Part shown: positions 113 to 58,517 of the stretch, in pieces | How positions within the stretch are numbered: position 1 is the stretch's first letter | How the letters are laid out: each line of letters starts with the position of its first letter | Assembly (NCBI GenBank): GCA_951813565.1 | Contig: OX638351.1 | Coordinates: 2,304,001-2,368,000, forward strand | Source: an uncultured Poribacteria bacterium | GTDB taxonomy: Bacteria > Poribacteria > WGA-4E > WGA-3G | Length of the DNA: 64,000 bases | Reading direction: 5' to 3' | The notes under the pieces: model-generated | Seen by the model: only the letters and a program-made list of their open reading frames with translations | The model's database searches: none | Told to the model about the DNA's origin: nothing | Position numbers and translations under genes: made by a program

Positions 113-291
113 GAGTGCATCTCATAAATCGGAATTTGTTGTTTCACTACGCTCAATCCAAGCCGTAAAATACTAATGCAAATGTCCGAGGCGCAATAAA
201 TTGCGCGACTACAAACGCGTTTCTAATGAAGTAAACATTTCTTGAAGATCGCGTTTACAAAGCCCTCCCACGATTTATGAGATAGGTTGTA
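111..291. repeat. MITE-like element (family D, ends ...ATCTCATAAAT / ATTTATGAGAT...) carrying REP-like hairpins
   Basis: Imperfect inverted ends TAGAGTGCATCTCATAAAT and ATTTATGAGATAGGTTGTA. Related ends occur at ~18522-18540, ~19961-19980 and ~54358-54373. Confidence 0.55.
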
Positions 292-11655: not shown

Positions 11656-11815
11656 GAAATTTCTCCTTATTTGAGGATTAATATTAAAAATATCTGATAC
11701 ATCCTTGTTGGAGTATCAATATAATTCATTTATACATATCTTGCATAAATGTAGTTTGTTCACAATCACCGAGTATCGCTTTAGGCGATTTTCGGTGTTA
11801 AGAATTTGCTGGTGT

Positions 11816-14245: not shown

Positions 14246-14279
14246 AACAGAAAGGACAGGCATAAACACCTGTCCCTAC
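14246..14279 (-). terminator. Probable intrinsic terminator after the PII gene
   Basis: Stem GGACAGG/CCTGTCC followed by a T-rich run on the minus strand. Confidence 0.45.
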
Positions 14280-14311
14280 TTATTTTCCGATAAATGCAAC
14301 AGAGATATAGA

Positions 14312-14668
<357 letters not shown>

Positions 14669-14723
14669 CTACGCAAATTGGATAGGGTTGTCTCGGCGGA
14701 TCCGGAGATTCGCCTTACGTTTA

Positions 14724-15008
14724 TCAGGTTGCTGTGGACGGAACCTGATCCGTCCTAAAAGTGGATGCTACCTGCTTAATAACTTCAACGACTTCATCAA
14801 CAATTTCTTCTGCAACAACGATCTCAATTTTCAATTTTGGTCCAAATTCAATCGTCCGTTCGCTTGTGCGATAGAGTTCGGTATGCCCACGACTACGTCC
14901 GAACCCGAGAACTTCGCTAACTCTCACTCCTCGGACACCGATATTGCTAAGAGCTTCCTCAACTTTATCCAGTATGAAGGGGCGGGTAATACACTCTATT
15001 TTTCTCAT
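14724..15008 (-). pseudogene. Degenerate, C-terminally truncated tandem P-II copy (94 aa)
   Basis: Colinear with glnB at ~358 bp offset, including the upstream leader. Carries Y51R and lacks the TGKIGDGK and C-loop segments. Confidence 0.8.
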
Positions 15009-15300
15009 GGGATTCTCCTGATACCTACGCAAATTGGATAGGGTTGTCTTTACGGATACAGAGATTCACCTTACATCTCATAAGGGTTGTTGCGGACAGA
15101 CACGAAATACGTCTTTACAATGGACTGAGGCACCAAATTAACGCGTTTTTCTTTGCGTATCATTTAAGATTTGCATGTTTGCTGGATGCTTATCCTATCC
15201 AATACACAAGACAAATCAACGTTCGCGCTGATGCGATGCCTCAGATTCAGGTTCTTGATCACAATGTTACAATAGTAACTATCTCATGATAGAGATAGGT

Positions 15301-16722: not shown

Positions 16723-16818
16723 TTCCTCCTAAGTGAATCAATATAATAATCATAACTCGTGATGTGTCATCATATTGGCGCGCAATTTATAATTTCACAA
16801 GAATCCTTGTGAAATATA

Positions 16819-16835
16819 TGCAAGGTTTATGCCAA
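16819..16835 (-). promoter_or_regulatory. sigma54 (-24/-12) promoter of glnA
   Basis: Minus strand reads TTGGCATAAACCTTGCA (GG-N10-GC), ~100 nt upstream of glnA. Confidence 0.8.
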
Positions 16836-16974
16836 TTTTTAAACTTGTCTCAGTTTCGGCACTCTGACACAGGCCGATGAGAACAGAACTACATAGAACA
16901 TAGAAGACACTTGATAACTAAACCTTTGATAACACGGCGCGTATAATTAAGTTGCAGAAACGCGCTAAGATATA

Positions 16975-17014
16975 TGCTAAATTATTAGGCATAGAATTGC
17001 CCAAATTTTCAGCA
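16975..17014. promoter_or_regulatory. Two NtrC-like enhancer sites
   Basis: TGCTAAATTATTAGGCA (16975-16991) and TGCCCAAATTTTCAGCA (16998-17014), both TGC-N11-GCA, 140-180 nt upstream of the sigma54 site. Confidence 0.6.
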
Positions 17015-17029
17015 GAATCAAGGTCTTTT

Positions 17030-17611
17030 CTATTTCTTTAATTCAACGTCTTCAGCAAATCGACTGGTTTCGGGACCGTCTTGACCGGCATATTTATTTT
17101 CCGGTTTCAGACGGTAAGGCATACTTGATGGCGATGAAAGTTGTTCAAAGGTAAAGGCACAAATCCGCATGCCCGGATAGAGTAACACTGGCATTCGTCC
17201 AAGATTACCAAGTTCCAAAGTAGCATTTCCGACCCACCCCGGATCAAATAGCCCTGCGGTGCTGTGAACAATAATGCCAAGCCTACCTAAGCTGCTTCTG
17301 CCTTCAAGCCTCGCCATCACGTCATCAGCTAATTCCAGTTTTTCGTGTGTTGCAGCGAGAACAAATTCACCCGGTTGCATCGTAAAAGCTTCACCGTCAG
17401 GCACCTTAACTTCCCGCATCAGATCATCAGCATCAACCTTTTCCTTCAAATCAATAAACGGATATTTGCTATGCTCAAAAACACGAAAGGTGTTGCCCAA
17501 TTTGAAATCAATTGAACAACTCCCTAACTGTATACCTAAATCTGGCTCAGGTGTAATTTTGATTTTCCCTTCGTTTATATATCGACGAATATCCACATCT
17601 GATAAAATCAT
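17030..17611 (-). CDS. dcd: dCTP deaminase
   Basis: Motifs 'EGRSSLGRLG..VH.TAG..DPG..G..TLE' and 'KY.GQ'. Confidence 0.93.
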   Translation of the reverse strand: MILSDVDIRRYINEGKIKITPEPDLGIQLGSCSIDFKLGNTFRVFEHSKYPFIDLKEKVDADDLMREVKVPDGEAFTMQPGEFVLAATHEKLELADDVMARLEGRSSLGRLGIIVHSTAGLFDPGWVGNATLELGNLGRMPVLLYPGMRICAFTFEQLSSPSSMPYRLKPENKYAGQDGPETSRFAEDVELKK

Positions 17612-17646
17612 ATTATAATATTACCACAATTTTGCAAAGATGTCAC
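17612..17646 (-). promoter_or_regulatory. sigma70-like promoter giving a probably leaderless dcd mRNA
   Basis: GTGACA-N17-TAATAT with a TG extension, ending 6 nt before the ATG; no RBS. Confidence 0.5.
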
Positions 17647-17734
17647 GTTTTTTGTGATAAGGACAGGGTTATTTAGTTTTCTATATTTCTGACGCATTTT
17701 ATCACATGCGTTAATTCTTTATAATAGTATCGTC

Positions 17735-18565
17735 CGTTGGATTTCACTCCGCTCTACCCATAAATCAACGCTATGAATGCCTTTATGGCATTCAGCGGGT
17801 GTCAATTTTAGGATATATCCTATTGTGGGAGTGAATCAACGCAGCATGCGCGTTTGGCATGCTGCCAAATCAACGCCAAATGCGCTTTTTGGCATTTGTC
17901 CAAATCAACGCAGCATGCGCGTTTGGCATGCTGCGGGTTTTCAACCCCGATTTTCTTCTGTAGGAGCGACCTCCCGGTCGCGAGCTGGAGCTCGCTCCTA
18001 CAGAATGTCCGAGGCGACAAGTCATGGCGAATACCACACGGGGAGTGCCTAAAGACGAATGCGCCAAATCAAGAAATCAACGGTATGAATGCCCTTTGGC
18101 ATTCCCCGTCCGGCATTCGCCCTGATTCATACCGTTGATTTGGCGTATTCGCCCAAGTGCGCTTGGCGTTGATTTGGCAATGAATTGCGCGACTACGCTT
18201 TTTTTCTTAAATTGACAGTTATGGAGCGGTTAGGAAACCGCACCTACCGTCCGGAAAATGCGATAAATCCCGTTAATTTGGTATTATACCAAATTAACGA
18301 GTTTTGTATTGTTTTCACTGCTGAGAACACGGGCGGGCACAGAGACCCGCCCCTACGATTTTGGGTAATTTGGTATTACTCGTTATTTGCACTGAAGTTC
18401 ACTTGTATTGTAGGGGCGGGTCCCTGTGCCCGCCCGTTGTTTCGATCCTGAGACATGGCGAGGCACCAAATCAACGGTCCGAATGCCTTATGGCATTCCC
18501 CGGGACCTCGCCCTACAAGTAATTTATGAGATAGGTTGTAGTTAATCCGGGTTATAAACCCCTAC
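17735..18565. repeat. Mosaic of REP-like hairpins, MITE ends and AATCAACG micro-elements
   Basis: Tandem units at 17832-17865, 17866-17900 and 17901-17934; nested insert 18016-18176; unit 18467-18501; several GTAGG(A/G)GCG hairpins. Confidence 0.8.
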
Positions 18566-18579
18566 AAGAGAGCGTTGAA

Positions 18580-19908
18580 CTATTTCTCCCAATCGTCAGG
18601 AGCAACACTGCGATAAGCGTAATCTAAGAGCGTCACGGGATGCATTACTTTCATATTTAACCCATGTTTTTGGATGCCGAGTTGAATCTGGAGTAGGCAT
18701 CCAGGGTTTCCAGTAGCGACAATATCTGCCTCAGTTTCAGCAATGTGTATCATTTTTCGTTCCAAAATTTCCTGTGAAAGTTCTGGTTGTGTAATATTAT
18801 AGATACCGGCACTCCCACAACACCATTCGGATTCTGTTAACTCAATTAATTCAAGCCCTGGTATCGTTTGTAGGACTTTTCGGGGTTGTGATTTCACGCG
18901 TTGGCCGTGTAGTAGGTGGCACGGTTCATCGTAGGTGACGCGACGTGGAATTTCGCCTTTTGGTGGTATCATCTCAATTTCGGCTAAGAATTCACTAATG
19001 TCGCGCATTTTGTGGCTGAAGTGTTTCGCTTTTTCAGCGTAAACTGGATCACTTTCCAGAAGTACCTCATATTCCTTGAGTGTTGCGCCACAACCAGCGG
19101 AATTTATAATAATCGCGTCTAAATTTTCATTTTCGAACGCATCAATGTTTTGTTTAGCAAGTGTCGCGGCGACATCGCGTACACCGTTATGTAGGTGTAG
19201 TGCACCACAGCAGGTTTGCTTGCGCGGTGTGATAACTTCACAACCGTTTTCTGCCAATACACGGATAGTTGCCAAATTCGTTTCAGTAAAAACTTGGTTC
19301 ATGATGCATCCAGAAATAAAACCGACGCGGTATCGGGTTTTCCCTTCGGCATGTGTGATGTCACGCATTGTATATTTGAGGCGTGGAGACGGAATTTTGG
19401 GTAGTAACGATTCCATTTGACCGAGTTGTCCCATCAACTTGAGAATTCCTGTTTTCTGGACTAACCATCGAAGGCCAAGTTTTTGATAGAGCCACATCAG
19501 TTCAAAGATGAGGTCTAACCTTTCCTTGTTTGGTAGAATTTGCTTGAAGACGAGGTTAGTCCAAAATTGGTAGCTTATGGATCGCGGGGCGTTCAGTTCA
19601 TAAATCGCGCGTGCCTCTTCAAGAAGTTCACCAAAGTGAACGCCAGAGGGACAAGCGGTCTCACAAGCACGGCAATCCAAGCATCGGTAGATGTATTCTG
19701 CCCATTCTTCATTAAGTGGTGTGGCATCTTGTGGTTTGAACGCACTCCCCATGAGATATAATCTTCCCCTGGGGGAATCGGTTTCTAAACCTAATTCTCG
19801 ATAAGTTGGACAAGTAGGTAGGCAGAGACCACAATGTGTACAGGCATCCCATTTTTTCCAATTAAAGGTGTCTGCACCAATTAGTGGTTGTGTTTGTTGG
19901 ATGGACAT
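18580..19908 (-). CDS. GlcF-like Fe-S protein (2x4Fe-4S plus two CCG domains)
   Basis: CTHCGLCLPTCP, SPRGR, CLDCRACETACP and two CCG motifs. Confidence 0.88.
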   Translation of the reverse strand: MSIQQTQPLIGADTFNWKKWDACTHCGLCLPTCPTYRELGLETDSPRGRLYLMGSAFKPQDATPLNEEWAEYIYRCLDCRACETACPSGVHFGELLEEARAIYELNAPRSISYQFWTNLVFKQILPNKERLDLIFELMWLYQKLGLRWLVQKTGILKLMGQLGQMESLLPKIPSPRLKYTMRDITHAEGKTRYRVGFISGCIMNQVFTETNLATIRVLAENGCEVITPRKQTCCGALHLHNGVRDVAATLAKQNIDAFENENLDAIIINSAGCGATLKEYEVLLESDPVYAEKAKHFSHKMRDISEFLAEIEMIPPKGEIPRRVTYDEPCHLLHGQRVKSQPRKVLQTIPGLELIELTESEWCCGSAGIYNITQPELSQEILERKMIHIAETEADIVATGNPGCLLQIQLGIQKHGLNMKVMHPVTLLDYAYRSVAPDDWEK

Positions 19909-20029
19909 ATTAAAATTTATTACGTTGGCGATATTTCTTTCGATTATATAGTTATTTGATTACAACCTATCTCATAAATCGTAGGAGGGCTTTCTAAGCC
20001 CGATTTTGTGAGACACAAGTCGTTATATC

Positions 20030-20286
20030 CAAATCAACGATGAATGCGCGTGTAGGCATTCATCCAAATCAACGCAGCATGCGCCAAATCAAGAAATCAA
20101 CGGTATGAATCATGGCGAATCATGTAGAATACCAAAAGCGTATTCTACCAAGCGCATTCGTCTTTAGTCATTCACCGGGTCCGAATGCCTATTGGCATTC
20201 CCCGTATGGCATGCTGCCAAATCAACGCTGAATGCGCGTGTAGGCATTCATCCAAATCAACGCAGCATGCGCGTCCGGCATGCTGC
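20030..20286 (+). repeat. Array of four AATCAACG hairpin micro-elements, one with nested inserts
   Basis: Units 20030-20064, 20065-20217, 20218-20252 and 20253-20286. Confidence 0.85.
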
Positions 20287-20385
20287 GGGGTTGAAAACCC
20301 CTCCCACAAGAAGATATATCCTTAAATTGACAGTTATGGGTAGAGTGCAGCGAAACCCGACATGTATACTGCGTTTTATCCAACC

Positions 20386-20927
20386 TTGACATACTCCCCA
20401 GCTAAAGCAGGGGGATTCTTTTGTCCCTCTGCACTGGGTAAATTCTGCGATCAACAGTGAATGCGAACGCCAGCAAAACTTTTGTTCGTCTTCTATCACC
20501 TACTGCACTGGACGATGCCCCGCCCATTCATCCGTCACAGATTTTCACCTGCTTTAGATGGCAAGATTCTTTTTTGTGAAGTGGCACTGTTTCACTTGAA
20601 ACAGTTCAATTTTGTCCTTCTTACCAGACACCCCGACACAACAAGAGATAACTTACTTCTCTTGGGGGTCTTTTATACAATATGTCTACTCGCTCCTTTT
20701 GAGAGTTCGCTAAGTAGCGACTTTGGTAGGATACATTGCAGATATGTGCTGCATATCAACCCGCTCAGGTGTTCCAGTTCACATTCGACTGGCATGATAT
20801 GGATGCTCTCCACCAACGGACATGGTTGCAGATGTAACATTACATCCTCTTTCTGTGGGTAGTCTGTGATACCCCGCACTTGTGAGCCGTTCTACATCCC
20901 AAAGCTAAAGCATTGGGTTTTGAACGG
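20386..20927 (-). mobile_element. Non-autonomous IS200/IS605-family derivative with no transposase or TnpB ORF
   Basis: Right end GAATCCCCCTGCTTTAGCTGGGGAGTATGTCAA (hairpin plus terminal TCAA). Left end CCGTTCAAAACCCAATGCTTTAGCTTTGGGATGTAGAACGGC resembles the left end of the tnpB element at 39493. Confidence 0.75.
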
Positions 20928-21214
20928 AACGTTTAATAATATGTTATCGGTGAAATCTTTCCAATATAATATGGGTAAACCAAAGCAGGACTAACACAAT
21001 CAAGCCGATTGTGGCAAATATCATGCCTTTTGAACTCACTGTGCCAACGAAACTTTTCTTGATATTTTCCTTTCTGCTTTCGTTAATCTTATCCGCAAGC
21101 ATCCGTTTTTCGTATTCTGTCAGATTTTTCTTTTGTGTAGGGAATAGTTCTGAGGGTGTACGCCTATAAATTCCGCTCTTCCACTTTCTGTATAAAATAC
21201 GAAAAACTATCACA

Positions 21215-22227
21215 ACGTGAGTTTGATAAATAGTTTTAGTTGTTACATGTCATTGGAAACGGATAATTAATATCCTTGAGTTCTTTGCGTTTGAGTGAGG
21301 GTTTTTTCTTCAAATAGGTATAAGCGATCAAGGCAGCAACTGTATTGACTTGGAAGTTAGCATAACTTCTATGCCGTGTGTGTTGGATCTCTGTCTGAGT
21401 TTTGAGTTCTTTATTCACCGGCTCAATGAGCATCCGTTTTTTCAGGAGTTCTGCGTCAGCATCAGATAAGGGTTCGGGTTTCATGTTCTTGCGCACTTTG
21501 TAAACAAGTGACACACCCCCTTCCCGCAGTTTATCCCGCAGCTTTTTGTTGATATACCCTTTATCGGCATAAAGTTTGCCAAATAGCCCTTTGGTCAACT
21601 GTGGCACAGGTTTCCGGTCATCTGTGTTTCCGGGTGTCACCATAGCAGACAACAACTCACCTTGATCGTTGATGACGAGATGCAGTTTGAACCCGTAGAA
21701 CCATCCCATAGAGGTTTTGGATCGTTCTGCCCCATCAGCGAAGACACGATGCGCTGAAATCCGACGATTATGGCAAACTGGAAGTGGCGTTGAGTCAATG
21801 AAGGAAGTCCCATTACATTCACCGAAACGGGTGTTTAGAAGAATAGACAACGGCATCAAAACCTCTTGGGCAAGCTGCACAAACCGACTATAGCTGACAA
21901 GGTTTGGAAACGCCCAACGGAGGTTGCCACAGACATGCTCTTGATAATAGCTTTTGAAGTTTTTACACTTATGTTGATGAAAATAAATAAGTATTGTCAT
22001 AACTTCGCTCGGATGAAGACACCTAAGTCTGCCACGGGTATTGCTTGTTCCGGATATTTCTGGCAACTGGTGTTGTGCTTGATATTGTTCATACAAAAGA
22101 AAAAAGTCGTCAATTTTACAGAAAAGTGTTATGATATCCATCAGAGAACTCCTTTGTGAGTATTTGGTATACTTCATAATAACAAAGGGGTTCTCTATTT
22201 ACCAGTTTTTAATTATCAAACTCACGT
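21215..22227 (-). mobile_element. IS982-family insertion sequence
   Basis: 15-bp perfect TIRs ACGTGAGTTTGATAA and a 7-bp TSD TATCACA (21208-21214, 22228-22234). Confidence 0.92.
21236..22141 (-). CDS. IS982-family DDE transposase
   Basis: Motifs IDSTP, GWFYGFKLHL, YADKGY and R..IE. The start could alternatively be 22177. Confidence 0.9.
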   Translation of the reverse strand: MDIITLFCKIDDFFLLYEQYQAQHQLPEISGTSNTRGRLRCLHPSEVMTILIYFHQHKCKNFKSYYQEHVCGNLRWAFPNLVSYSRFVQLAQEVLMPLSILLNTRFGECNGTSFIDSTPLPVCHNRRISAHRVFADGAERSKTSMGWFYGFKLHLVINDQGELLSAMVTPGNTDDRKPVPQLTKGLFGKLYADKGYINKKLRDKLREGGVSLVYKVRKNMKPEPLSDADAELLKKRMLIEPVNKELKTQTEIQHTRHRSYANFQVNTVAALIAYTYLKKKPSLKRKELKDINYPFPMTCNN

Positions 22228-22371
22228 TATCACACATCCCACAGTTCCAAACAAGACAGCTGCACCCAATGAGCATATCTGTAATAGGCAAGAATTCAAT
22301 CGGATCAACCGGGCTCGGTTCGGCGTATAGAGTTTCGCTTATGATGAAAACCGCATGAATAGTTTCCATTT

Positions 22372-23205
22372 TTACGTCCCTGTGATGATTTTAGTTATCC
22401 CTTCATTCAGACTACCGGAACGATACCCCTGTAGGTCAAGCGTGACGTGTGCGTATCCGAGCGTTTTAAAGTGTGCGCTGATTTGAGTGCGCGTTTCTTG
22501 TTGGCGTAGTAGTGCAATTTCCCTCGCTTCAAGTTCAATTCGGGCAAGCTCACCGTGATGACGAACACGGAACTGGCGGACACCTAAATCGTAAAGGAAT
22601 TGTTCGGCAGCGTCAACCTGACGTAGCAATTCACGTGTGATGCGCATGCCGTAAGGAAACCTTGAGGATAAGCAGGCAAATGCCGGTTTATCCCATGTTG
22701 GTAGGTCCCAAGCTTTTGAAATCTCGCGTATTTCTGCTTTTGTGAGGTCAACATCAATTAAAGGGGCTTGGATACCCATCTGTTTCGCTGCATCCATTCC
22801 TGGGCGGTGGTCGCCAACGTCATCTGGAATTGCTCCGTATACGATAGTTCCTACATTATATTTCTCTGCGATTGGGCGTAGTTTATCAAATAACTCTGTT
22901 TTGCAAAAGAAACAGCGATTGGTCGGATTGCTCGCGTATCCTTCCAGTTCTAACTCTTCGGTGTGAACCGTTTCAAAACGGATGCCTATCTGTTTGGCAA
23001 TATCTTGCGCAGCTTTCATTTCTCGGATAGGATAAGAATCGGAGATTGCGGTAACAGCGAGGGCGTTATCACCTAAAGCATGTTGTGCCGCCTCAGCAAG
23101 AAATGTGCTGTCAACGCCACCTGAAAAGGCGACAATGACTTTTTCATAGTCTTGTAGGCAATCGTAGAGTTGGTTTAATTTTGTTTGTAGTGGTTTTGGT
23201 ATCAT
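22372..23205 (-). CDS. larE: ATP-dependent sulfur transferase LarE family
   Basis: PP-loop SGGVDS, RCFFCK, DD.GDHRPG and ACLSSRFPYG. Confidence 0.88.
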   Translation of the reverse strand: MIPKPLQTKLNQLYDCLQDYEKVIVAFSGGVDSTFLAEAAQHALGDNALAVTAISDSYPIREMKAAQDIAKQIGIRFETVHTEELELEGYASNPTNRCFFCKTELFDKLRPIAEKYNVGTIVYGAIPDDVGDHRPGMDAAKQMGIQAPLIDVDLTKAEIREISKAWDLPTWDKPAFACLSSRFPYGMRITRELLRQVDAAEQFLYDLGVRQFRVRHHGELARIELEAREIALLRQQETRTQISAHFKTLGYAHVTLDLQGYRSGSLNEGITKIITGT

Positions 23206-23400
23206 TTATTCAGTCCCGAGGTGTTATGTTAGGATGTATGCTATTTGTCATAAGTCAAGTTTTAAGATCATCCACGAGTTCTTTCACATGGGTAAATCTG
23301 GCTTACAAAGCCCTCCTACAAGAGACAGAGGTCGCGATTCGGAGATCGCTCCTACAAGAGATAGAGCGGTTTTGGTAACATCTGTTCACATCCTAACGTG

Positions 23401-23994
23401 CTATAAAGGTCTGTCAGCTTGTTGTATCTTTTCCAATTCACTACGAAGCAATTGTCTTTTTAAGCCGCTAATCCTGTCAATAAAAAGTGTTCCATTGAGA
23501 TGATCAATTTCGTGTTGGATCACACGAGCGAGAAGTCCATCCGCTTCAATCTGAATATCTTCGCCGTAGTCGTTCATTGCTTTAACGACTATCTTTTCCG
23601 GACGTTTCACATCAGCACGGAGGTCAGGGATGCTTAGACATCCTTCTTCTGCCACACTTTCACCTTCAACACTCAAAATTTCAGGATTGAACAGCATGAT
23701 CGGTTCATAGTCTGCGTCTTCTGGGTCTATATCAACAATAAGGAATCGTTTTAAAACGCCAACTTGCGTTGCTGCGAGTCCGATGCCGTTTGTAGCGTAG
23801 AGTGTCATCAACATCTCTCGAGCAAGTTTGGTTTCAATGTCTGTGATTTCCTGAACGGGTTCCGCTCTTTTGCGGAGGATAGGATCACCATAATAACGAA
23901 GTTGCAGCGGTTTTGTTTTTGGTAAGCGTGGTATTTCGTCTACGCCTTGGTCTTCAGATTGTCTGTTTTTACGTTTTCTTTTCGGTTTTGACAT
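23401..23994 (-). CDS. def: Peptide deformylase
   Basis: GIGLAATQVG, EGCLS and QHEIDH. Start placed at ATG 23994, downstream of the promoter. Confidence 0.93.
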   Translation of the reverse strand: MSKPKRKRKNRQSEDQGVDEIPRLPKTKPLQLRYYGDPILRKRAEPVQEITDIETKLAREMLMTLYATNGIGLAATQVGVLKRFLIVDIDPEDADYEPIMLFNPEILSVEGESVAEEGCLSIPDLRADVKRPEKIVVKAMNDYGEDIQIEADGLLARVIQHEIDHLNGTLFIDRISGLKRQLLRSELEKIQQADRPL

Positions 23995-24043
23995 GCGTTG
24001 GACAATTTCTCCATTATTCTTCGTCAATGAAAAAGTTTTAAAT

Positions 24044-24072
24044 ATCATAACACTTGTAGTGGAGTATGTCAA
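24044..24072 (-). promoter_or_regulatory. sigma70 promoter of def
   Basis: TTGACA-N17-TATGAT on the minus strand. Confidence 0.7.
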
Positions 24073-24088
24073 GTAAAATTAGATGTGG

Positions 24089-24220
24089 GGGTGTGTAAAG
24101 TTTTTGGCATGAATACTCTTTTCTTTTGTTGGAGGGGTTTTCAACCCCGATTTATCGGGCTTACAAGGTTTCCCTCCAACAAGAAAATGGCATGGTTAAT
24201 GCAAATATATTTACACACCC
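24089..24220. repeat. MITE-like element (family E)
   Basis: Ends GGGTGTGTAAA / TTTACACACCC around a REP-like doublet; related to 50082-50427. Confidence 0.55.
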
Positions 24221-24277
24221 ATTGAAGAATCAGATTTACAATATCCCTGCAAATTTAGCTTTATGGCTTGAGCAGCA

Positions 24278-24868
24278 TTACTCACGAAATGTTACGCGAT
24301 CATAAATTTCACGTAAAGGCAGTTCACATTGAACTGAAATAAGTGGTAGGCGTTCCTCAAGGTTTTGAAAATCGGTGAGAATCCAATTGTTCTCTTGGCG
24401 GCAGAAGTGTTCAACACAAATCTTGTCTTGTGCAACAAGGATGTATTCCTGTAAAGATGGCAGCTGTCGGTAGTGAATAAATTTTTCACCGCGATCATAA
24501 GCCTCTGTTGAAGGTGACAGAACTTCTACGAGAATAATTGGATTAAGGAGTATATCAAAGACATCATCTTCAAAACGCGGTTCTTCACAAACGACAACAA
24601 CATCGGGGTAAAAATAGGATGAAGTACTGGGTGTACTTACCCGCATTTCGTTTGCATAAGTTTCGCATTCGCTGCCTTTCAGGAGATTGCGAAGTTCACC
24701 AGATATATTACTGGTAATAAGATTATGCGCGCGACTTGCACCGGACATCGCGATTATTTTACCCTTAACGTACTCACTTCTAACCGTTTCTCCGTTAGGT
24801 ATCGCCTTGCGTTCTAAAGTAATGTATTCTTCAGGTGTAAGGTATGTTTGTGCTGCAGAACTTGCCAT
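24278..24868 (-). CDS. Uma2 family (DUF820) PD-(D/E)xK-like protein
   Basis: YPDVVVVC, VEVLSPST.AYDRG.K and LQEYILV. Confidence 0.9.
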   Translation of the reverse strand: MASSAAQTYLTPEEYITLERKAIPNGETVRSEYVKGKIIAMSGASRAHNLITSNISGELRNLLKGSECETYANEMRVSTPSTSSYFYPDVVVVCEEPRFEDDVFDILLNPIILVEVLSPSTEAYDRGEKFIHYRQLPSLQEYILVAQDKICVEHFCRQENNWILTDFQNLEERLPLISVQCELPLREIYDRVTFRE

Positions 24869-24969
24869 GGGCTCCTCCGGTAATTCACTGATAATTCATT
24901 GTAGCGTAATCGGGAGTGTGTGTCAAGGTGTGAACGAAAGATTTTAGCGAGAAATGAAACGACTTTTTA

Positions 24970-26553
24970 TCACGGGGCTTTCATGAGATAAAGGTGAAAA
25001 CCTTCATCACCGATTGTAGAACCTGTAAATTTTTCTAAAAGTGTAAGTTGATACTCTTCAATCTGCGATACATTCAAAGCAACACTCATGATAACTAGTA
25101 CGTCTTGGGAGTTTTGCGTACTTAGCGTTTTGGCTTCTTTGACGACGTCTCTGTTAGAGACACTATGTGTTCTGGCTTTGTCCCACCTGACAAATGAACC
25201 GAATCGTCTGCCACGAGGATAATAAACTTGATCTTTTTCAAGGTAACCGACAACGGTACTCACCGAAGGGTCGCTATGCCCCACCATGAGCATATCTTGC
25301 ATATCTTGAGCTTTGATATACTCAGCAGTCCTTTTTCCGTTAGAGAAGATGTGTTTAATATCCATACGGACAGCGGTGATGCCACCGAGAAAATGAACAG
25401 CAAGGATGATGGCGAAAACGAGACTAAATAGCCGTTGTGCCAATTCACTGATACGATTGAATTTCAGTTTTATCTCAGGACAATCATAGTAAATCCAACT
25501 TGCCAGAACAAACGTGAAGAACAGAAACCCATGATGACGTATACTACCGCCATACTTTACATAGAAAAATGCAAGGAGTCCAACCGTGGCTATGAGGTAA
25601 GTCAGAAGTGCGGTTGGACGTTTCAAGAAACGGATAACACACCAAAGGACGATAAGATAGCAAAGCGGTAATCGGATTAGTTGAAAGAGCGGGTAGCTAT
25701 TGAGTTGATGACTACCCCAAAATCCCATGGATGCTCTTGGGGACGGCAGCATGGCTTGCGTAATGATTTTGGTGATGTTGTTCATACGTTGGACTGTAAA
25801 ATTGAAGTTCCATCCGACGGCAAACCCAGTATCAGCGGGTGGATTGAGTTGTAGGACAGCAGTCACAATACCAACGCCGATGAGAGCAAAACCTATCCAT
25901 ATTTGTCGTCTATCTTCTGTAAGCGCTTCTTCTTTGCAGCAGTAGAAATAGAGGTATTCACACATAAGCGCGAATCCAATGGCAATGGTAACGATGAGGG
26001 CATGCACGCTGGTATGTGCAAGCAGTATTAGGACAATCCCAACCCATACAAATCGTTTGTAACGTTCTCTATAAAGCACACAAAAGATAGTGATAAGTAG
26101 CACACCAAGCGCATAATTTCGGGCAACAATAGCATATTCGTAGAGTGCGAAATATCCGAAAGCAAAAAGAAATTTGTGTAACCGATTAAACGGCGCATAG
26201 CGTGTGAAAAGAAAAACCGTTGTGGCAGCAATCAGGAGATGAAACACCTGCATAATAACAGGTGATGCGGTGATACGACTGAGAGGCATTAGGCAGAGAT
26301 GCCATAAGGCTGGATGCCCCTCATATTTCATATTCGCAAAGAGTTCAAAGACAGATGCACTATCTCTTGCGAGGAGCCACGCTTGGATTTCATCTCGCCA
26401 CATTTCATGATGTGTCGCGGCAAAACCACACACAAGCAGGAAAAGAACTGTCACCCCGATCGCGTAGTACAATTCCTTTTTGGCAAACGAAGCCTGATGG
26501 TCAGATTCTTGGTCTTTATGTTGTAAGGATTGGAAGGAATTCTGGAAAGACAT
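24970..26553 (-). CDS. Polytopic membrane protein, GT-C glycosyltransferase-like
   Basis: 'HEMWRDE.QAW..A', 'YEGHP.LW' and 'YEY...ARNY', with many TM helices. Confidence 0.65.
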   Translation of the reverse strand: MSFQNSFQSLQHKDQESDHQASFAKKELYYAIGVTVLFLLVCGFAATHHEMWRDEIQAWLLARDSASVFELFANMKYEGHPALWHLCLMPLSRITASPVIMQVFHLLIAATTVFLFTRYAPFNRLHKFLFAFGYFALYEYAIVARNYALGVLLITIFCVLYRERYKRFVWVGIVLILLAHTSVHALIVTIAIGFALMCEYLYFYCCKEEALTEDRRQIWIGFALIGVGIVTAVLQLNPPADTGFAVGWNFNFTVQRMNNITKIITQAMLPSPRASMGFWGSHQLNSYPLFQLIRLPLCYLIVLWCVIRFLKRPTALLTYLIATVGLLAFFYVKYGGSIRHHGFLFFTFVLASWIYYDCPEIKLKFNRISELAQRLFSLVFAIILAVHFLGGITAVRMDIKHIFSNGKRTAEYIKAQDMQDMLMVGHSDPSVSTVVGYLEKDQVYYPRGRRFGSFVRWDKARTHSVSNRDVVKEAKTLSTQNSQDVLVIMSVALNVSQIEEYQLTLLEKFTGSTIGDEGFHLYLMKAP

Positions 26554-26562
26554 GTAGTGTTT

Positions 26563-27678
26563 CTAATGTACGCCTAAACTGGAAATAGGTAACCATAAAC
26601 CACCCGTGCTGCGTGTGATGAATCTTTGGAAAGGTTCATCAAGACCTATGACATCCACCTTGATTTTAGTCTCACTCATTTTAGTTAGCACATCACGTGC
26701 AGAATAGTTACCACTGACATATTCGTCAGTGATCAAAATGAAGTGTACATCAGCATTTTGTCTGAAGTCTACTTCGTCAGTGGCGCGGATAAGGGCATCT
26801 ATCGCTTTTTCACCACCACGACATTTCACTTGTGCAAGAGCTCTTTTGATTTGAGAGATAGAACGGGTCTGTGGAATAACATCGAGAGCTAAACCCAACA
26901 TGTTTTCTCGAAAGACGACGATTCCAAGTGTAAAATCAAGTTCAGCGTCGTCAAACAGATCGGTCATGCGATTCAGATGCGTTCGGACTGCGTTAATATT
27001 ATCTTTCATACTACCGCTTGCGTCAATGATGAAAACAATGTCTACGATATCCGTGGTTCGGTTCGTCACAATGTGTTGCCCGATTTGTGTTAGTATTGCG
27101 GTTGGCAGTGCAAGTTCACTAACACTTGGAAGAGTATCGTCAACAGGAGGCTTGAAAGACTGGTATTTTGTCCCACGAAATATATCTTGTGAATCCAATT
27201 TGCCTACTCCTGGGCGACTTTCCATGTCTTGATTAACTGCTGGCACTGTAGAATTTATACCGGATTTATTGATGTCTAAAATACGAGGAGTCGGAAGCGA
27301 AAAACCGCGTAACGGGGTTACTGGATTCTCATTCACAATTGGTGTTGTAGCAGGTAAGGATGCCACTGGGGGATTTACCGCAGTTTCTATCTGCTTTTGC
27401 CTGATTGGGACCAATTTTGGAGGAATATACTGTTCTCGTTTTAATTTACGTAAAGCCCGTTGTGAAGGAATCTTTGATAATTCGACGTATGTTATGTCTT
27501 TTATCGAACTTGGTTCAGTTTGGTGTAGTACTCTCATGGCAGAAACCAGAACGATATGAATAACGATAGAGAGGATGAGGGCGTAGTAGATGGTTTTTGT
27601 AATTTTAGGTTTCATACCACACATCCATGATTTTGTCGGAATGCACATATCTTTGCAACTTCCGGCAAAATAAAACAT
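26563..27678 (-). CDS. Membrane-anchored vWA domain protein
   Basis: TM helix 'SIVIHIVL', MIDAS DASGSM and LITDE. The true start may be ~27615. Confidence 0.8.
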   Translation of the reverse strand: MFYFAGSCKDMCIPTKSWMCGMKPKITKTIYYALILSIVIHIVLVSAMRVLHQTEPSSIKDITYVELSKIPSQRALRKLKREQYIPPKLVPIRQKQIETAVNPPVASLPATTPIVNENPVTPLRGFSLPTPRILDINKSGINSTVPAVNQDMESRPGVGKLDSQDIFRGTKYQSFKPPVDDTLPSVSELALPTAILTQIGQHIVTNRTTDIVDIVFIIDASGSMKDNINAVRTHLNRMTDLFDDAELDFTLGIVVFRENMLGLALDVIPQTRSISQIKRALAQVKCRGGEKAIDALIRATDEVDFRQNADVHFILITDEYVSGNYSARDVLTKMSETKIKVDVIGLDEPFQRFITRSTGGLWLPISSLGVH

Positions 27679-27905
27679 AAAGATTCTATAAGTTTGCCAA
27701 ACTTTCGGATAGGTTGGACTTGACGTCCTCGCTTGTGTTTATTATTGCATAAGCACGTATGCAATTTCAAGTTAAAGTTGTGTATTGGTATGAATATTAT
27801 CTCAACAGATAGGGTTGAGATGCGATACTTGAGGAATTCATTTTCTGTCTGAATCTCGGATTGTAAGAATTATGCGGATTCGTAGGGTTTCACATGTATT
27901 CAACC

Positions 27906-28168
27906 ATAACTGTCAATTTAGTGGTCCGCCACCCTGGCAGGCGCGTTTTTTCTCTTGTGGGAGTGAATCAACGCCCAAATGCGCTTGGTAGAATGCGCGC
28001 ATGGCATTCTACATGATTTGGCGGGTTTGTAACCCCGATACACAGTAAATCGCGCGGACAAAGCGCTCCCACAATGTCCGAGGCGACAAATACCATACGC
28101 GTATTTGGCGTTGATTTGGCAATAAATTGCGCGACTACAAACGCGTTATTTCTTAAATTGACACCTAT
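27906..28168. mobile_element. MITE family A with ~20-bp direct repeats
   Basis: Ends ATAACTGTCAATTTA / TAAATTGACACCTAT, flanked by GGGTTTCACATGTATTCAAC at 27885 and 28169. Confidence 0.8.
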
Positions 28169-28395
28169 GGGTTTCACATGTATTCAACTAACCTATAAAG
28201 TGATAAATCTATCTCATTTCCAACTATAAAAATTAGGAAACTTTAATTTTTTATAATCGTTATATATTTTGTGAAAAATGTTGGGTACCCTGAAGCATTT
28301 TACTTAACATATCTCAATATATTTCCGAATAAAGATAACACTACACCTATTCAATAAACTAAAGCAACGCCCCTCTTGATCGGAGATGCTTCTGA

Positions 28396-29637
28396 ATGAA
28401 CCCAAATCAAAAAATTCAAAAACTGACCTCGCTTCTCAATAAACATCATGAATATCGCAAAACCTGCCTAAATCTCATTGCTTCAGAAAACACGCCTTCT
28501 CCATTAGTAGAAGAACTTTTTGACGAAAGATTGGCTCGGCGATACGGAAATTATGCTGGTATTGATCTTTATCAGCGAAACTACAAAGGCAATCGCCATA
28601 TCACTGAAATAGAGGCGTGGACACAGGAATTAGCAAAAGAACTGTTCAATGTGGCGTTCGTTGATTTCCGACCGCTCTCTGGAAACATCGCGGGTATTGC
28701 AGCGACATTCGCGTTAGGAGAACCGGGTGATATAGCATTAGAAGTTCATCACGGTCATAGTTATGCCCATAAACTTGCTTCGTCTCCGCTCAAAGTAGAC
28801 TTGCAGTCAATTCCGATTCCGTGGGATGGTCTTCAATCAAACATTGACCTTCCAGCAACACTTGAACTGATTGAAAAACACAAGCCGAAAATAGTAAATA
28901 TAGGTTCTGGCGTATTTCTTTTTCCGCAACCTGTTGCGGAACTTAAAAGCGCAATGCGTCAAGCAAATCCAAACTCCTATCTCATCTATGACGCGGCACA
29001 CGTTATTGGCCTTATCGCTGGTGGAAGATTTCAGTCGCCATTTGAAGAAGGCGCGGATGTTATCATTTCCAGTACGCACAAAACCCTTGCGGGACCGCAA
29101 GGTGGCATGATCTTAACCAACGATAAATCTATTGCGGAACGAATTGGAAAAACGTTATATCCGTTGCTGATGAGCAACCATCATTTGAGTCGTTTGCCAG
29201 CATTAGCAGGGACGTTTGTGGAGTGGATGGCATGTGGTGCAGCACATGCAGATGCAATCGTTACTAACGCGAAGGCTTTGGGACAAGCATTAGCGGATCG
29301 TAACATACCGATGCTCGGCGCTGAACTTGGATTTACAGAGTCGCATACGTTGATACCGATTGTGGATGCTTTTGGTGATGATGGGAACGAATTAGCAAAT
29401 CAATTGGAAACATGCCATATAATTGCTGGCGCAGCAAGACTATCTCCCGAAATCGGCACCTCTGGTTTGCGATTTGGTGTGCAAGAGGTTACTCGATGGG
29501 GAATGACACCAGAAGATGCATCGGATATCGCAGATTGTATCCTTGATGCGCTCGCTGGACAATCACCCGATACAGTCAAACCCAAAGTCGCACAAGTAGC
29601 ACAACGTTTTAATACAGTCCAGTTTACGATAAAATAA
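28396..29637 (+). CDS. SHMT-like PLP-dependent enzyme (divergent)
   Basis: LIASEN, YDAAH and STHKTLAGPQGG (PLP lysine); lacks the canonical YAEG and GGHLSH motifs. Confidence 0.8.
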   Translation: MNPNQKIQKLTSLLNKHHEYRKTCLNLIASENTPSPLVEELFDERLARRYGNYAGIDLYQRNYKGNRHITEIEAWTQELAKELFNVAFVDFRPLSGNIAGIAATFALGEPGDIALEVHHGHSYAHKLASSPLKVDLQSIPIPWDGLQSNIDLPATLELIEKHKPKIVNIGSGVFLFPQPVAELKSAMRQANPNSYLIYDAAHVIGLIAGGRFQSPFEEGADVIISSTHKTLAGPQGGMILTNDKSIAERIGKTLYPLLMSNHHLSRLPALAGTFVEWMACGAAHADAIVTNAKALGQALADRNIPMLGAELGFTESHTLIPIVDAFGDDGNELANQLETCHIIAGAARLSPEIGTSGLRFGVQEVTRWGMTPEDASDIADCILDALAGQSPDTVKPKVAQVAQRFNTVQFTIK

Positions 29638-29766
29638 AAGGCAACAAGGATTCAACGTAACGACAAATTTTTGTAACGTTTTAGATTATTGTAACGTTAA
29701 TTTATTATAGTGCTAATGTTTTATAGTTGGATAGGTTTTAACATTTTAGATGATGTTAATGTATTT

Positions 29767-29880
29767 TATAGTAAAATCCAATAATATGTTCACATTTCAA
29801 TGAACAGCAATTCCCACACGCATGCGCTGGCGAGGTTTCCTAACCTCGCCAATGTAAAGGTAATTGTGAATTTTACTATA
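29767..29880. repeat. MITE-like element (family B, TATAGT...ACTATA)
   Basis: Ends TATAGTAAAAT / ATTTTACTATA around a GGCGAGGTT..AACCTCGCC hairpin; related copy at 38965-39134. Confidence 0.55.
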
Positions 29881-29913
29881 AACGGTAAATAACAAGAAAA
29901 AGGAATATTTACT

Positions 29914-31650
29914 ATGGAAAATAAAGCACCCGATTGGGTGAAAGTAGCTGAGTTAAGCGAAGTGCCTGAGGGACAACCGAAGGCAATTAAAATGGGAGCA
30001 GGTCGTAGTATTGCCCTCTTTAATGTTGACGGGAAAATTTATGCGACCGATAACCAGTGTCCACACATGGGTTACCCATTAACGCGAGGCACAATCCGAA
30101 ACGGTATCCTGACATGCGATTGGCACCGCCGCAGTTTTGATTTAGAGGGTGGTGGTTGTTTCCACGTCGAATGTGATGATTTGAAGGTTTTTCCGGTGGA
30201 TATCCGAGGTAACGAAATTTGGATTGAACCGGGAGATATGATATATCGTCGCGCTGAAGAACATAAGCAGTTGCTCCGAGAAGGTCTTTTAAGCGAAGAC
30301 CGATGGACAATGTCCAAAGCAATTGCCCTGTTACTTAAAGGTGGCGTGCCGGAAGAAGAGGTGATGGGTTCAATTCTGGAACACGTCGCCCGACATATTC
30401 CTTCTGCTCATGGATCAGAAGGTGGTGGCGATGTCTCTAAACTCATCAATGGACTCAGAGTTGGCAGCAGATATGAGGGTGAAGATAGGCTTATCGCTGT
30501 TACGACTGCTGCGTGTTCTGCTGCAGGAGAAGCACGTCAACGGCTTGAAGTTGTGCCGCTGCCTGAACCTGTTTCTTGGGAAAAGATAGAACGATGGGTC
30601 CGTATCTTCTCTTATGAAGGACAAGCCGGACGTATTGAGCGATGCTTGTTCACAGCATACCATAAAGGCGATGCAGATAAATTGCGCCCGCTACTCTTTG
30701 AATGTGCTGTTGAACCCAATTTTATTGATAATCCACAGATTCCACTTTATGTGAGTTATCTTTCTGAAGTCGTTGACGAATTTGGGTGGGATAGAACTGC
30801 GGACCTGTTCTTCTATCTTGGTGCAGACCTCGTCGGACATCATCCCGCGGATCCAGAACGGTATCGCAGAGATGCGATCAATCTCATGAGAGAGATGCTA
30901 CCGATAATTGAAAGTGCCGCTTTAGAACGAACGAATAAATTTGACGAAGACGCTTTTGTTGAGGCACTTACAAGTGTCAATCTCCAACGCTCTTTTGAGG
31001 AAGTACAGGCAGTCTTAGTTGATGGTGTTAAGTTAGATAGAGTCATTACGTCACTTGTTCTACTCGCAGCGGATAGAATGGCAAGCACACCTGTTAATGT
31101 AGATGCAGGTTGGTGGAACTTAACAATGGAACTCAACCTTGCGTCATCTTTACGGAGTGCGCAACAGGTTGGTGGAAACCTTGTCGCAGCGAAAGGGCTT
31201 TTCCACGTTGCGTGGCAAATCTTCGCAGACCGCTGGATAAACATATCCTCACGACCCCTCAGCGAACCGTTGAGTGAAGAAAAACTTGATGTCGCAAATG
31301 AAGCAGAGGGTATCAAACACATTATTGGAACGATTGAGTCACTCAACGTGCAAGATGTGGGACCACAAGTCCTTGGCTATCTAAATGCTGGTTATTCTGG
31401 TGAACGATTACTTGAAGCGATCGGGCATTCAGTGCTTTGGGATGATACAGGAAGTGAAGTCCTACCGACATTGCGAACTGTATTTGAAGAATGGAAGCAT
31501 GCTGAAGGACACCCCGCACAGCCACAATTGTTGGTCGGTTTAGCACGATATGTTACAGATATCCGATCCAATACGGATAACAAATCTGCAGCTACCACAG
31601 CGATGAATTTTGCTGAAGGTAGAACAACAATTGAGGTCTTTGAGGAGTAA
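29914..31650 (+). CDS. Rieske [2Fe-2S] ferredoxin fused to a ~470-aa helical domain (paralogue 1)
   Basis: CPH...CDWH Rieske ligands in a NirD-like N-terminal domain. Confidence 0.85.
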   Translation: MENKAPDWVKVAELSEVPEGQPKAIKMGAGRSIALFNVDGKIYATDNQCPHMGYPLTRGTIRNGILTCDWHRRSFDLEGGGCFHVECDDLKVFPVDIRGNEIWIEPGDMIYRRAEEHKQLLREGLLSEDRWTMSKAIALLLKGGVPEEEVMGSILEHVARHIPSAHGSEGGGDVSKLINGLRVGSRYEGEDRLIAVTTAACSAAGEARQRLEVVPLPEPVSWEKIERWVRIFSYEGQAGRIERCLFTAYHKGDADKLRPLLFECAVEPNFIDNPQIPLYVSYLSEVVDEFGWDRTADLFFYLGADLVGHHPADPERYRRDAINLMREMLPIIESAALERTNKFDEDAFVEALTSVNLQRSFEEVQAVLVDGVKLDRVITSLVLLAADRMASTPVNVDAGWWNLTMELNLASSLRSAQQVGGNLVAAKGLFHVAWQIFADRWINISSRPLSEPLSEEKLDVANEAEGIKHIIGTIESLNVQDVGPQVLGYLNAGYSGERLLEAIGHSVLWDDTGSEVLPTLRTVFEEWKHAEGHPAQPQLLVGLARYVTDIRSNTDNKSAATTAMNFAEGRTTIEVFEE

Positions 31651-37631: not shown

Positions 37632-38284
37632 TACCATTTTGAATGCTCGCTTTTGATTAACGAGAAACACGTTTGTAGTCGCGCAATTCATTGCGCCTCT
37701 TACATTCACCTTCCGAATTTCAAAATTCCATTAAATCTCCTAATAGACATTATAACGTTTTAATTGTCCGTAGTTTTTGGTCTCTCATAAAATCTAAAGT
37801 TCGTCCGTCGGGTAGCGCTTGCGAAACCCGACAATATGAAGGTTTCAAGGCAAACTGGGCAGGTTTCACACGGAAATCGAAGGAACACACCAAGCAGGTT
37901 TTGATAATAGTATTTCAGTCCCAACATGTCGGGTTTCGCAAGCTCTACCCATAAGTGTCAATTTAGCGATATATTTTCTTGTGGGAGGGCTTTTCAAGCC
38001 CGATTTTTACATCTTGAGTTCCGTAGGAACGATATGTTTGTAGCAAACGTGATAATCAATCTCTTGAGCGCCGTAGGAGCGACATAGATTCTATAAACAT
38101 TCCGCCTCTACGAGGCTAACACATTCACCAAAACCGATACATTTTCCCTAAATTGACGCCTATGGGTTTCGCAAGCGCTACCCGACGGACACCCCATCCA
38201 CTTTTGCCTATATTTCGGTCTTGGCATTATCAGACACTTCCGATTAAATCATGATAATGTCTAATGTAATTTTCAGAATTGGTA
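37632..38284. mobile_element. Multi-level nested MITE stack
   Basis: Outer TACCA..TGGTA with TAA flanks; inner AGACATTAT..ATAATGTCT (37745-38262); family A element (37951-38163) with 20-bp DRs at 37931 and 38164. Confidence 0.75.
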
Positions 38285-38807: not shown

Positions 38808-39153
38808 TAACCCGAAAAATAAAAAATCATCCTATAATTCGTTTGTAGGGTCTACGAATCAACAAACGATTCACAATTGTGGCGTTGCTTCGCAAACTGA
38901 TTATTTTGGCAATTTTCCCAACCAATCTTTGAATTTTCTCTTCCATTCTCGCGAAACCGAAAACTATAGTGAACTTGAAAAATAAAGATACACATTTTCT
39001 GTAGGGGCGATCTCCGAATCGCGACGAAACTCACTGATAGTTGGGAATCGGAGTTCCCTCCCGCCAAATGCCAAACGCGCATTTGGCGTTGATTCACATC
39101 TCAAAATGTCCCGTTAATTCTAAAGCTTACTATAAACCCACCTCTGCAGCACT

Positions 39154-46260: not shown

Positions 46261-46833
46261 ACGTGAGCTTGATAATTAGAATGAATATAAATGTCCGTTG
46301 GGTAGAGCGAAGCGAAACCTATAAATCAACGCTATGAATGCCTGAATCAACGCCAAATGCGCCTGTGGCATTTGGCGGGCATTCAGCCAAATCAACGCCA
46401 AATGCGCTTTTGGCATTTGACGGGTGTAAACTTAAGGAAAAATGCTGGTTTTTTTCTTGTGGGAGGGCTTTGTCCGCCTGATTTTGTGAGACTCAACCTG
46501 TTAAATCCAAATCAACGCTGAATGCGCTAAATCAACGGTCCGAATGCCATTTAGGCATTCCCCGTATGGCATTCATCGGGGTTGAAAACCCCTCCCACAA
46601 GAAGGTGTATCCTTAAGTTTACACCTATGGGTAGAGCGAAGCGAAACCCAACAATTCAACCGTCTTGAGAATAATAAAGAGTTGGGTTTCACTTATTTTT
46701 TCGGAAATATCGTCCTCAATAGCTCAACAACCTCTCTTTAGAGTCTGTTTTTATTGTCCATTTCCGTTCTACCCCACCGAATGCCATAGGCGCATTCGGT
46801 GTTGATTCCCTACGGGATTTATCAAACTCACGT
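46261..46833. mobile_element. MITE with IS982-type ends carrying nested cargo
   Basis: ACGTGAGCTTGATAA / TTATCAAACTCACGT; 7-bp TSD TAGTTTA (46254-46260, 46834-46840); contains family A element 46321-46628. Confidence 0.88.
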
Positions 46834-47385
46834 TAGTTTATAATTCCATAGGTATCATTCATTTTAGCGTATGCCATGCCCCATTACCATTGTAGAGCGG
46901 GGTACCCGCTGAATGCGAAGAACGCATTCACAGCGTTGATTTGGTGCCCGCCGAATACCACACGCGCATTCAGTATTGATTTCCTTCAACAAGAAACGCT
47001 GTCACGAGTTGGAACTCGCTCCTACAAGAAAATGTCCAAATCCGCGTCATCTGTGTAATCCGAGATTCAGACAAATATCTACCCACAGTCTGTAAATAAT
47101 CCGTGCCATCTACGTAATCCGATAAATTCGCGTTTCAGACAGAAGCTGGCGCGCTTACAAGCGCCTACTGTTTGGGGTATTTAGCGCGTAAATTTCCTTA
47201 AGTTGGCACTTATGGGTAGCTTGCATTTAACGAAACTCTGCATACCGTAATATCATCCATATTTGACAAATATAATTCAAAAGCGTATAATATAAGCACA
47301 AACGAGCATGAAAACGCAAAAACGCAATTTATGCTTGCACAGCATAAATTTACTTTAAATTTCAGATAAGGAGGCATAAAACACA

Positions 47386-50081: not shown

Positions 50082-50427
50082 TGAGGGGTGTGCATAAATA
50101 ATTCCGATGTTAAATATGTCTTAAAGGTAGTCCGCACACGCCGTGGGTTTCCGTCCACAAGTTCAAAGAGGCGCAGCATGCCACACGGGGAATGCCATAA
50201 GGCATTCGGACCCGGTGAATGACTAAAGACGAATGCGCTTGGTAGAATACGCTTTTGGTATTCTACATGATTCGCCATGATTCATACCGTTGATTTCTTG
50301 ATTTGGCGCATGCTGCGTTGATTTGGCAATGAATTGCGCAACTACAAACGCATTTCTATAAATCAAGCGGCACCTGGCGTCTGTCCCTGTCTGTGTTGAT
50401 GCGCCAAATATTTATGCACACCCCTCA
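50082..50427. mobile_element. MITE (family E) with 19-bp perfect TIR and a nested micro-element
   Basis: TGAGGGGTGTGCATAAATA / TATTTATGCACACCCCTCA; insert 50173-50325; related copy without the insert from ~58315. Confidence 0.8.
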
Positions 50428-58287: not shown

Positions 58288-58517
58288 CAGAAATCAGTAT
58301 GCCAAGTAAAATGCGGTGTGCATAAATAAGTTCAACGTCAGATATGTGCTTAAAGGTAGTAGGCACGCTCCGCGTGCCGTAACAAGTTAAAGAGGCGCAA
58401 TGAATTGCGCAACTACAAACGCCGTAAATCTTGATAAAAAATGTGTAGGTGTAATCTGTTTGATATTGCACAATACAATTATGAACACTTTTAGGTAAAT
58501 ATGATGGAGGAACTCCG

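Follow-up and report, generated by a model that had tools for sequence, protein, structure and literature searches.

The stretch analysed here, which we refer to as the window, comprises 64,000 nt of contig OX638351.1 (assembly GCA_951813565.1, positions 2,304,001-2,368,000) from a sponge-symbiont bacterium and carries six copies of one host repeat, three empty and three filled at a single bond (Table 1). What a preliminary description of this DNA had called an empty allele proves to be a minus-strand REP with a GTAG head. The coordinates given there for a 34-nt insert at the bond of this empty copy hold, and two further empty copies that it listed are present as well; the left flanks of these two and of the filled copy at 50173 are sequence variants (TAAGAGGC, AAAGAGGC). 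Genome-wide we counted 292 host copies at up to 3 mismatches, of which 87 lie directly after an exact TTGATTTG and 162 have an empty GAGGC flank. The same REP also flanks a RAYT gene in the relatives G003 (L143) and G095 (L150), and L143 exceeds the cut-off of the NCBIfam REP-associated tyrosine transposase. A Y1 gene search and a wider profile detected no RAYT belonging to this REP in the genome under study, and the window gave no Rfam match at gathering score. The gene adjoining the focal site (28396-29637) is serine hydroxymethyltransferase-like, below the family cut-off, with fluorothreonine transaldolase as its second match.

Table 1. Host repeats, inserted units and nested stacks in the 64,000-nt window
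Feature	Position	Strand	Basis or remark
Host REP, empty copy	181..221	-	motif match at 193+
Host REP, empty copy, GTAG on +	37668..37706, ends approximate	+	motif at 37694-
Host REP, empty copy	58386..58421, ends approximate	-	motif at 58397+
Host GTAG-type REP, portion 3' of insertion	28073..28084	-	REP shared with RAYT genes L143, L150
Host REP, portion 5' of insertion: GTAG head (28135-28138) and palindrome	28119..28147	-	
34-nt unit (net insertion): 2-nt leader CA, tag AATCAACG, hairpin with final C	28085..28118	-	
Unpaired 5' tail, 8 nt: 2-nt variable leader and invariant AATCAA	28111..28118	-	fold, leader classes
Hairpin closed by C-G and G-C pairs	28084..28110	-	fold; pair 9:35; last G (28084) probably part of unit
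161-nt nested stack	18016..18176	-	read from sequence; ends in GTTGATTTG
Outer 58-nt unit of 161-nt stack	18016-18039 + 18143-18176		
Inner expanded unit of 161-nt stack	18040-18142		
Opposite-facing unit with doubled tail, in 161-nt stack	18065-18107		
153-nt nested stack	50173..50325	-	read from sequence; ends in GTTGATTTG
Outer 34-nt unit of 153-nt stack	50173-50186 + 50306-50325		loop holds a 119-nt expanded unit
TA-leader unit (17761-17796) and three head-to-tail units (17832-17934), other REPs	17761..17934	+	parser
Unit in loop of GGCAC-type REP, host base lost	18467..18501	+	parser, junction comparison
Cluster of tandem and nested units	20030..20286	+	parser
Expanded TG-leader unit in TGTGGGAG-type REP beside focal site	27965..28023	+	read directly; missed by parser
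TG-leader unit within GTAG head of REP, host A to G	39063..39096	-	parser, junction comparison
Five more units, one nested in another's loop (46508-46577)	46343..46943	.	parser

A recursive parser recovered 728 units of 33-37 nt from the genome, nested up to three rounds deep, compared with 2 from the reversed genome. Unit length was 34-35 nt in 652 of the 728, and the tag AATCAACG was present in 683. The parser was lenient on some copies and missed expanded units; it left 581 tags, about 390-420 being expected by chance, so that the 728 units are not a full census. Excision of 28-41 nt restored an 18-mer known elsewhere at 549 of 1270 AATCAACG sites versus 92 of 1270 random positions, and the modal excision measured 34-35 nt and started 2 nt ahead of the tag. 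The tag strand folds into an 8-nt free 5' tail followed by a hairpin (z = -1.9, against -2.8 for the other strand). In 175 distinct 34-nt units the outer three stem pairs gave 404 complementary cells; 1000 shuffles averaged 256 and never exceeded 302. The relatedness of the units inflates this difference, but at least six different complementary triplet pairs occur in the stem. The hairpin is maintained by compensatory changes. Long open frames leave 14% of the genome uncovered, and 457 of 515 unit sites fall outside them. With its conserved tag and compensated stem, this is the very small, non-coding and repeatedly inserted unit that the preliminary description had proposed.

The two longer inserts at the same bond, 161 and 153 nt in length, do share the ending GTTGATTTG, but they are not different elements as had been thought; both are nested stacks of the unit. 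The 58-nt outer form of the longer stack also occurs alone at genome position 2676999, and intermediate forms of 34, 69, 77, 104, 129 and 153 nt are found genome-wide. Insertion at C^G re-creates C^G at the end of the unit, where stacks regrow, which explains their head-to-tail arrangement. In the 56-58-nt forms a tail-less inner hairpin takes the place of the loop (18023-18039 and 18143-18154 in the window) and offers nested insertions a new C^G target. Ahead of the hairpin, two or three copies of the 8-nt tail are often present, with a changed leader (GA/GG), for instance at 18065-18107, L024, L102 and L126, a pattern suggestive of slippage or re-priming at the tail end. One array holds at least nine identical units, and arrays of this kind (G000 3536332-3536680, 2679122-2679291 and 5273402-5273503) point to local amplification; unit copies are not independent events. 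A longer repeat at 300-480 of the window (11 copies) contains a AATCAACG of its own, behind which lies an unrelated A/T-rich hairpin, and some of its copies carry the unit in their REP part.

The claim that insertion is site-specific did not survive the genome-wide comparison: the unit enters at least eight REP families and also itself. The commonest target is C^G (342 of the 728 units in the form C-CA-G, plus 69 in tandem), and 451 of 515 unit sites touch a 12-mer repeated at least five times; among 3000 random intergenic positions the figure is 1349. Several RAYT clades of the genus have their own REPs among the hosts, and the focal REP is one of these. Junctions, expected there to be fixed rather than scattered, are constant within each host family. 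Exact removal of units reveals no duplication beyond 1-3 shared bases, in agreement with the reported lack of a TSD, but while insertion at C^G hosts such as the focal site has a clean appearance, elsewhere 1-2 host bases are usually replaced. In seven host families with A at the junction, which were picked after a first viewing of the junction comparison, 588 unfilled copies carry A and 52 carry G, whereas the next base in filled copies is G in 63 and A in 1. Of 118 distinct units of other genomes, 96 are followed by G, 17 by a tandem unit, 3 by C and 2 by A. Since the junction G pairs with the C of the tag, it is most simply part of the unit, with host bases lost. Judging from these alignments, the closing G of the hairpin (28084 at the focal site) would most simply travel with the unit, usually overwriting 1-2 host bases (3 in one family), and we infer that it belongs to the unit. 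The HUH chemistry suggested earlier, a conservative strand transfer at a single bond, leaves this loss of host bases unexplained.

The leader of the unit follows the preceding host base: 421 of 442 units after C have CA, 111 of 126 after G have TG and 21 of 30 after A have TA. The tail and the host flank thus have 1-3 bases in common. Across 40 genus genomes, 34 units are followed by AG versus 191 for one G-form context; two of 12 inspected AG loci (L159, L162) are clean insertions in the GTAG head in which the host A is kept, and units followed by AG may be either true clean insertions or the result of later G-to-A changes. No single cleavage dinucleotide accounts for the tail-side junctions, which are C^C, G^T and T^G. 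On the hairpin side, several A-hosts have the junction at a C^T step of the opposite strand. As a source of the junction G, hairpin-templated correction was rejected because it predicts a TT stem extension, which is seen only in the double-tailed forms, 10 in all. For a lagging-strand orientation bias the count was 245 of 452 (p=0.08), with a GC skew that has no clean origin or terminus. At L197:1500-1620 (G000 327620-327753) both ends of a REP doublet bear a unit in the GTAG head, the hairpin variants of the two being different, and similar facing pairs occur in G006; these unit-capped doublets suggest either that insertions cluster locally or that capped doublets move together. At L263 and L228 the left flank of the unit comes from one REP family and the right flank from another, which suggests recombination between units.

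For the filled-versus-empty comparison between strains, we aligned contigs of four sequencing runs with 10501-30400; their joints may derive from paralogues, and in all four the unique flanks end at 27933 and resume at 28134-28237, leaving the focal site unbridged. A metagenome scan with the neighbouring protein returned one identical contig, which starts 138 nt before the gene, short of the focal site. The orthologous gaps of relatives (14 loci, three of them syntenic on both sides) are diverged and show no host REP motif in 520 nt, and some of them hold other REPs or units. Beyond the roughly 700 units of this genome, a strict unit pattern with no control matches is found in 84 of the 111 other family members examined (Ca. 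Poribacteria genomes), with loads of up to 353 units per genome, and in none of 64 genomes from ten other families of the phylum. Among the 80 matches listed from an all-species scan, the title is Ca. Poribacteria for 79 and 'uncultured bacterium' for one, and viral contigs gave no match to one strict unit pattern. Eight sequencing runs contain the region, including two labelled sponge metagenome.

The window itself encodes no candidate enzyme, as had been remarked, but this carries little weight, as 10 Y1 genes lie elsewhere in the genome: five IS200/IS605 tnpA, two of a second clade and three RAYT-like, two of the ten having a stop inside the match. In none of them is the unit the gene's own flanking repeat. 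Profiling with 15 local Y1 proteins retrieved no further divergent member from this genome and none from G103. The expectation of Y1 or RAYT genes flanked by the same hairpin was not borne out at the genus level either: no Y1 gene with the unit as its own flanking repeat was found among 79 loci, a survey in which weak or unassembled genes are missable. Among the flanks listed for these loci, 10 hold a unit and one (L158) has units on both sides, of which the ones next to the gene lie inside its own REP. The units observed beside Y1 genes sit inside or next to the REPs of those genes, and the known RAYT clades each keep their own REP. We found no Y1 clade common to all high-copy genomes and no unit tag in the flanks of the five IS200/IS605 tnpA loci of this genome (L001-L005). 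G103 (one contig, 92% complete) holds 48 units and G010 25, both with no Y1 match, and G001 has neither a strict-pattern unit nor a Y1 match.

Other enzyme classes were searched as well. No IS110 match was obtained in this genome, and an IS91-type Y2 search gave no match, nor did its control anywhere. The genome has two reverse transcriptase (RT) genes, one CRISPR-associated and one Drt4-like. The first (L116/L202, G000 ~3989138-3991839) encodes a 465-aa RT with a long insertion, adjoins cas1 and is an RT-bearing CRISPR adaptation module; the second (L117, G000 812184) encodes a 515-aa Drt4-like defence RT. RT matches occur in 18 of 40 genus genomes and in none of the high-copy genomes G006, G099, G012 and G017 (353, 116, 98 and 85 units); RT presence does not track unit copy number. 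Numerous long RT frames on small contigs of G110, G015, G016 and G102 are possibly host retroelement DNA in these assemblies. There are two cas1 genes in this genome. Cas1 integration duplicates the repeat, and Cas1 was rejected as the mover for this reason.

We tentatively favour, with a probability somewhat short of even, a ~35-nt non-coding and non-autonomous micro-element that parasitises the REPs of many REPtron families, hitchhiking on RAYT nicks and finished by host enzymes. The unit would move as single-stranded DNA. RAYT (Y1 HUH) enzymes would nick extruded REP hairpins in trans and with loose specificity, and the unit would enter there, its hairpin end joining precisely. The tail end may pair with 1-3 host bases, after which host polymerase, nuclease and ligase would finish the joint and overwrite host bases. 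Later, whole REP-plus-unit blocks would spread and tandem arrays would amplify locally. Hitchhiking on RAYT nicks is favoured because the targets are RAYT substrates. The C^T step at the hairpin-side junctions of A-hosts is the TnpA-REP cleavage step and counts for the same reading; TnpA-REP cuts after C, at C^T and also at CA, and at CC with an altered guide (PMC8266576). The TnpA-REP guide rule, if applied to the AACG before the stem, would give C^G, the commonest target, and G001, which lacks both unit and Y1, is a further point in favour. Sections of earlier work offer related models, namely a REPIN intermediate consisting of a hairpin whose free 5' tail might pair with the target (PMC3116915) and a BIME model in which the RAYT nick is extended by host polymerase and the ends are trimmed (PMC3333891). 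Against RAYT nicks stand the units of G103 and G010, the missing Y1 gene with the unit as its own repeat, the missing clade common to high-copy genomes and the absence of the host REP's RAYT here. The tail-side junctions that fit no dinucleotide, the clean insertions at L159 and L162 and the argument, in PMC3116915, that REP singlets are immobile also count against it, and neither a polymorphism nor a circle was seen in the contigs of the four runs.

A dedicated enzyme outside those recognised here, either a divergent HUH enzyme or another recombinase, might instead read the AATCAA tag with its hairpin and insert the unit into hairpin DNA. The near-invariant tag beside a co-varying stem suggests recognition by a protein, and the restriction of the element to one family and the retention by each known RAYT clade of its own REP agree with this. 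We nevertheless think it unlikely, given that neither the 15-protein Y1 profile nor the IS110 search produced a candidate in this genome, that G103 yielded no divergent Y1 member either and that a gene flanked by the unit was not found in relatives searched short of whole-proteome profiles. A transposase may also be dispensable altogether, if breaks or stalled forks at REP hairpins led to copying of the tailed hairpin by template switching or microhomology joining. The 1-3 bases shared at the tail junction, the 1-3 host bases lost, the doubled 8-nt tails, the chimeric flanks, the collapsed double-tailed forms and the units in genomes with no Y1 match are all in line with such repair. It is made improbable, in our judgement, by a hairpin-side end and a 34-35-nt length that are fixed over many hosts and genomes (of 118 units, only five are followed by anything other than G or a tandem unit) and by the invariant tag, for which generic repair does not account.

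It could further be argued that the unit is not independently mobile and that a few old composites spread as REP blocks or by gene conversion, the junction G reflecting a strict need for rare host G alleles. Long identical flanks common to many copies, the arrays of at least nine identical units and 42 unfilled G alleles in one host family are compatible with this. However, one hairpin variant occurs in unrelated hosts and many variants in one host; four of the A-host families have G in none of 113 unfilled alleles and in 23 of 23 filled copies, and in five genomes one family has 731 unfilled A alleles and 2 unfilled G alleles, so we consider block spread alone very improbable. Hardly credible is an RNA route, in which the opposite strand (a hairpin followed by UUGAUU) would form a terminator-like RNA reverse-transcribed into a nicked target: the variable end 8-9 nt past the stem, the sense-side position of that strand in 166 of 282 co-directional gaps (one of several tests, based on crude gene calls, p=0.003) and two RT genes in the genome speak for it, but those RTs are CRISPR-associated and Drt4-like, and RTs occur in fewer than half of the genus genomes and in none of the four high-copy genomes named above.

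The REP/REPIN-RAYT systems are among the closest known to the element for which we favour hitchhiking on RAYT nicks. We compared it with GTAG- and CGTC-tagged REPs, REPINs and RAYT as presented in PMC3733652, PMC8266576, PMC3116915, PMC3333891 and PMC6006769. Like these repeats, it is a 20-50-nt hairpin with an unpaired 5' tag, present in hundreds of intergenic copies with no TSD, and the proposed REPIN intermediate is likewise a hairpin with a 5' tail (PMC3116915, in part). The T. roseum GTAG-23 REPs sit in small palindromes of which the empty form is also abundant, as a section of PMC3733652 reports. In contrast to REPs, which have GT[AG]G or CGTC at the foot of the stem, the tag of the unit is AATCAA(CG); its moving form is a single 34-35-nt hairpin and not an inverted doublet as in REPINs; it has no REPtron among the 79 Y1 loci of the genus, whereas REP/RAYT systems have a cognate RAYT flanked by the repeat; and it differs in inserting into the REPs of many RAYT clades, GTAG head included, while overwriting host bases. 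Other Y1 classes have atypical hairpins, as far as the text of PMC6006769 indicates. With IS200/IS605 elements such as IS608 and ISDra2 the unit has in common a hairpin substrate, no TSD and a tetranucleotide 5' of the stem (PMC6006769 and PMC8266576). It is unlike them in having one hairpin in place of two ends, in the loss of host bases (63 of 64 A-host filled copies) and in left flanks that vary widely, with no fixed 4-5-nt target 5' of the unit; nor does it share ends with the five tnpA loci of this genome, as a derivative would. DDE-type MITEs are different again, the unit being an asymmetric tail-plus-hairpin with neither terminal inverted repeats nor TSD.

The Nostoc SDRs provide another precedent. 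Those of Nostocaceae, the subject of Elhai and colleagues in 2008, are reportedly 21-27 nt in size. They resemble the unit in being tiny modules precisely inserted in a short palindromic repeat; the unit is set apart, by description only, by its phylum, its 34-36 nt, its many host families and its self-nesting. In excerpts of the literature, SDR5 inserts precisely into HIP1 (PMC4390886) and SDRs are reported only in Nostocaceae (PMC5861425). The view that the family is undescribed can be upheld with this qualification, that the Nostoc SDRs and GTAG-23 REPs precede it in kind: searches of the literature for Poribacteria or the tag returned no description, and the supplementary repeat-family lists of PMC3733652 and PMC6006769 might include a relative. 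These tiny insertion units make up a genuine family that had not been described before. Its members may, in a broader formulation that is possible but which we hold with some doubt, be 35-nt single-hairpin hyperparasites of REPs with a base-replacing, tail-pairing integration unlike that of IS200/IS605, achieved via many RAYT clades or an undescribed enzyme. How REPs spread is described as still open in PMC8266576. Natural junctions that can be compared filled and empty number in the hundreds, come from at least eight different host sequences and constrain the integration chemistry, and the unit can itself serve as a 35-nt oligo substrate in a direct test. It forms a second layer of selfish DNA on REPs and often destroys their GTAG head. 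Altogether, the unit is comparable in the way it works to a tagged REP or a Nostoc SDR, but it departs from REPs in its tag, in the lack of a doublet and of a REPtron, and from IS200/IS605 elements in its target and in the absence of conservative insertion.
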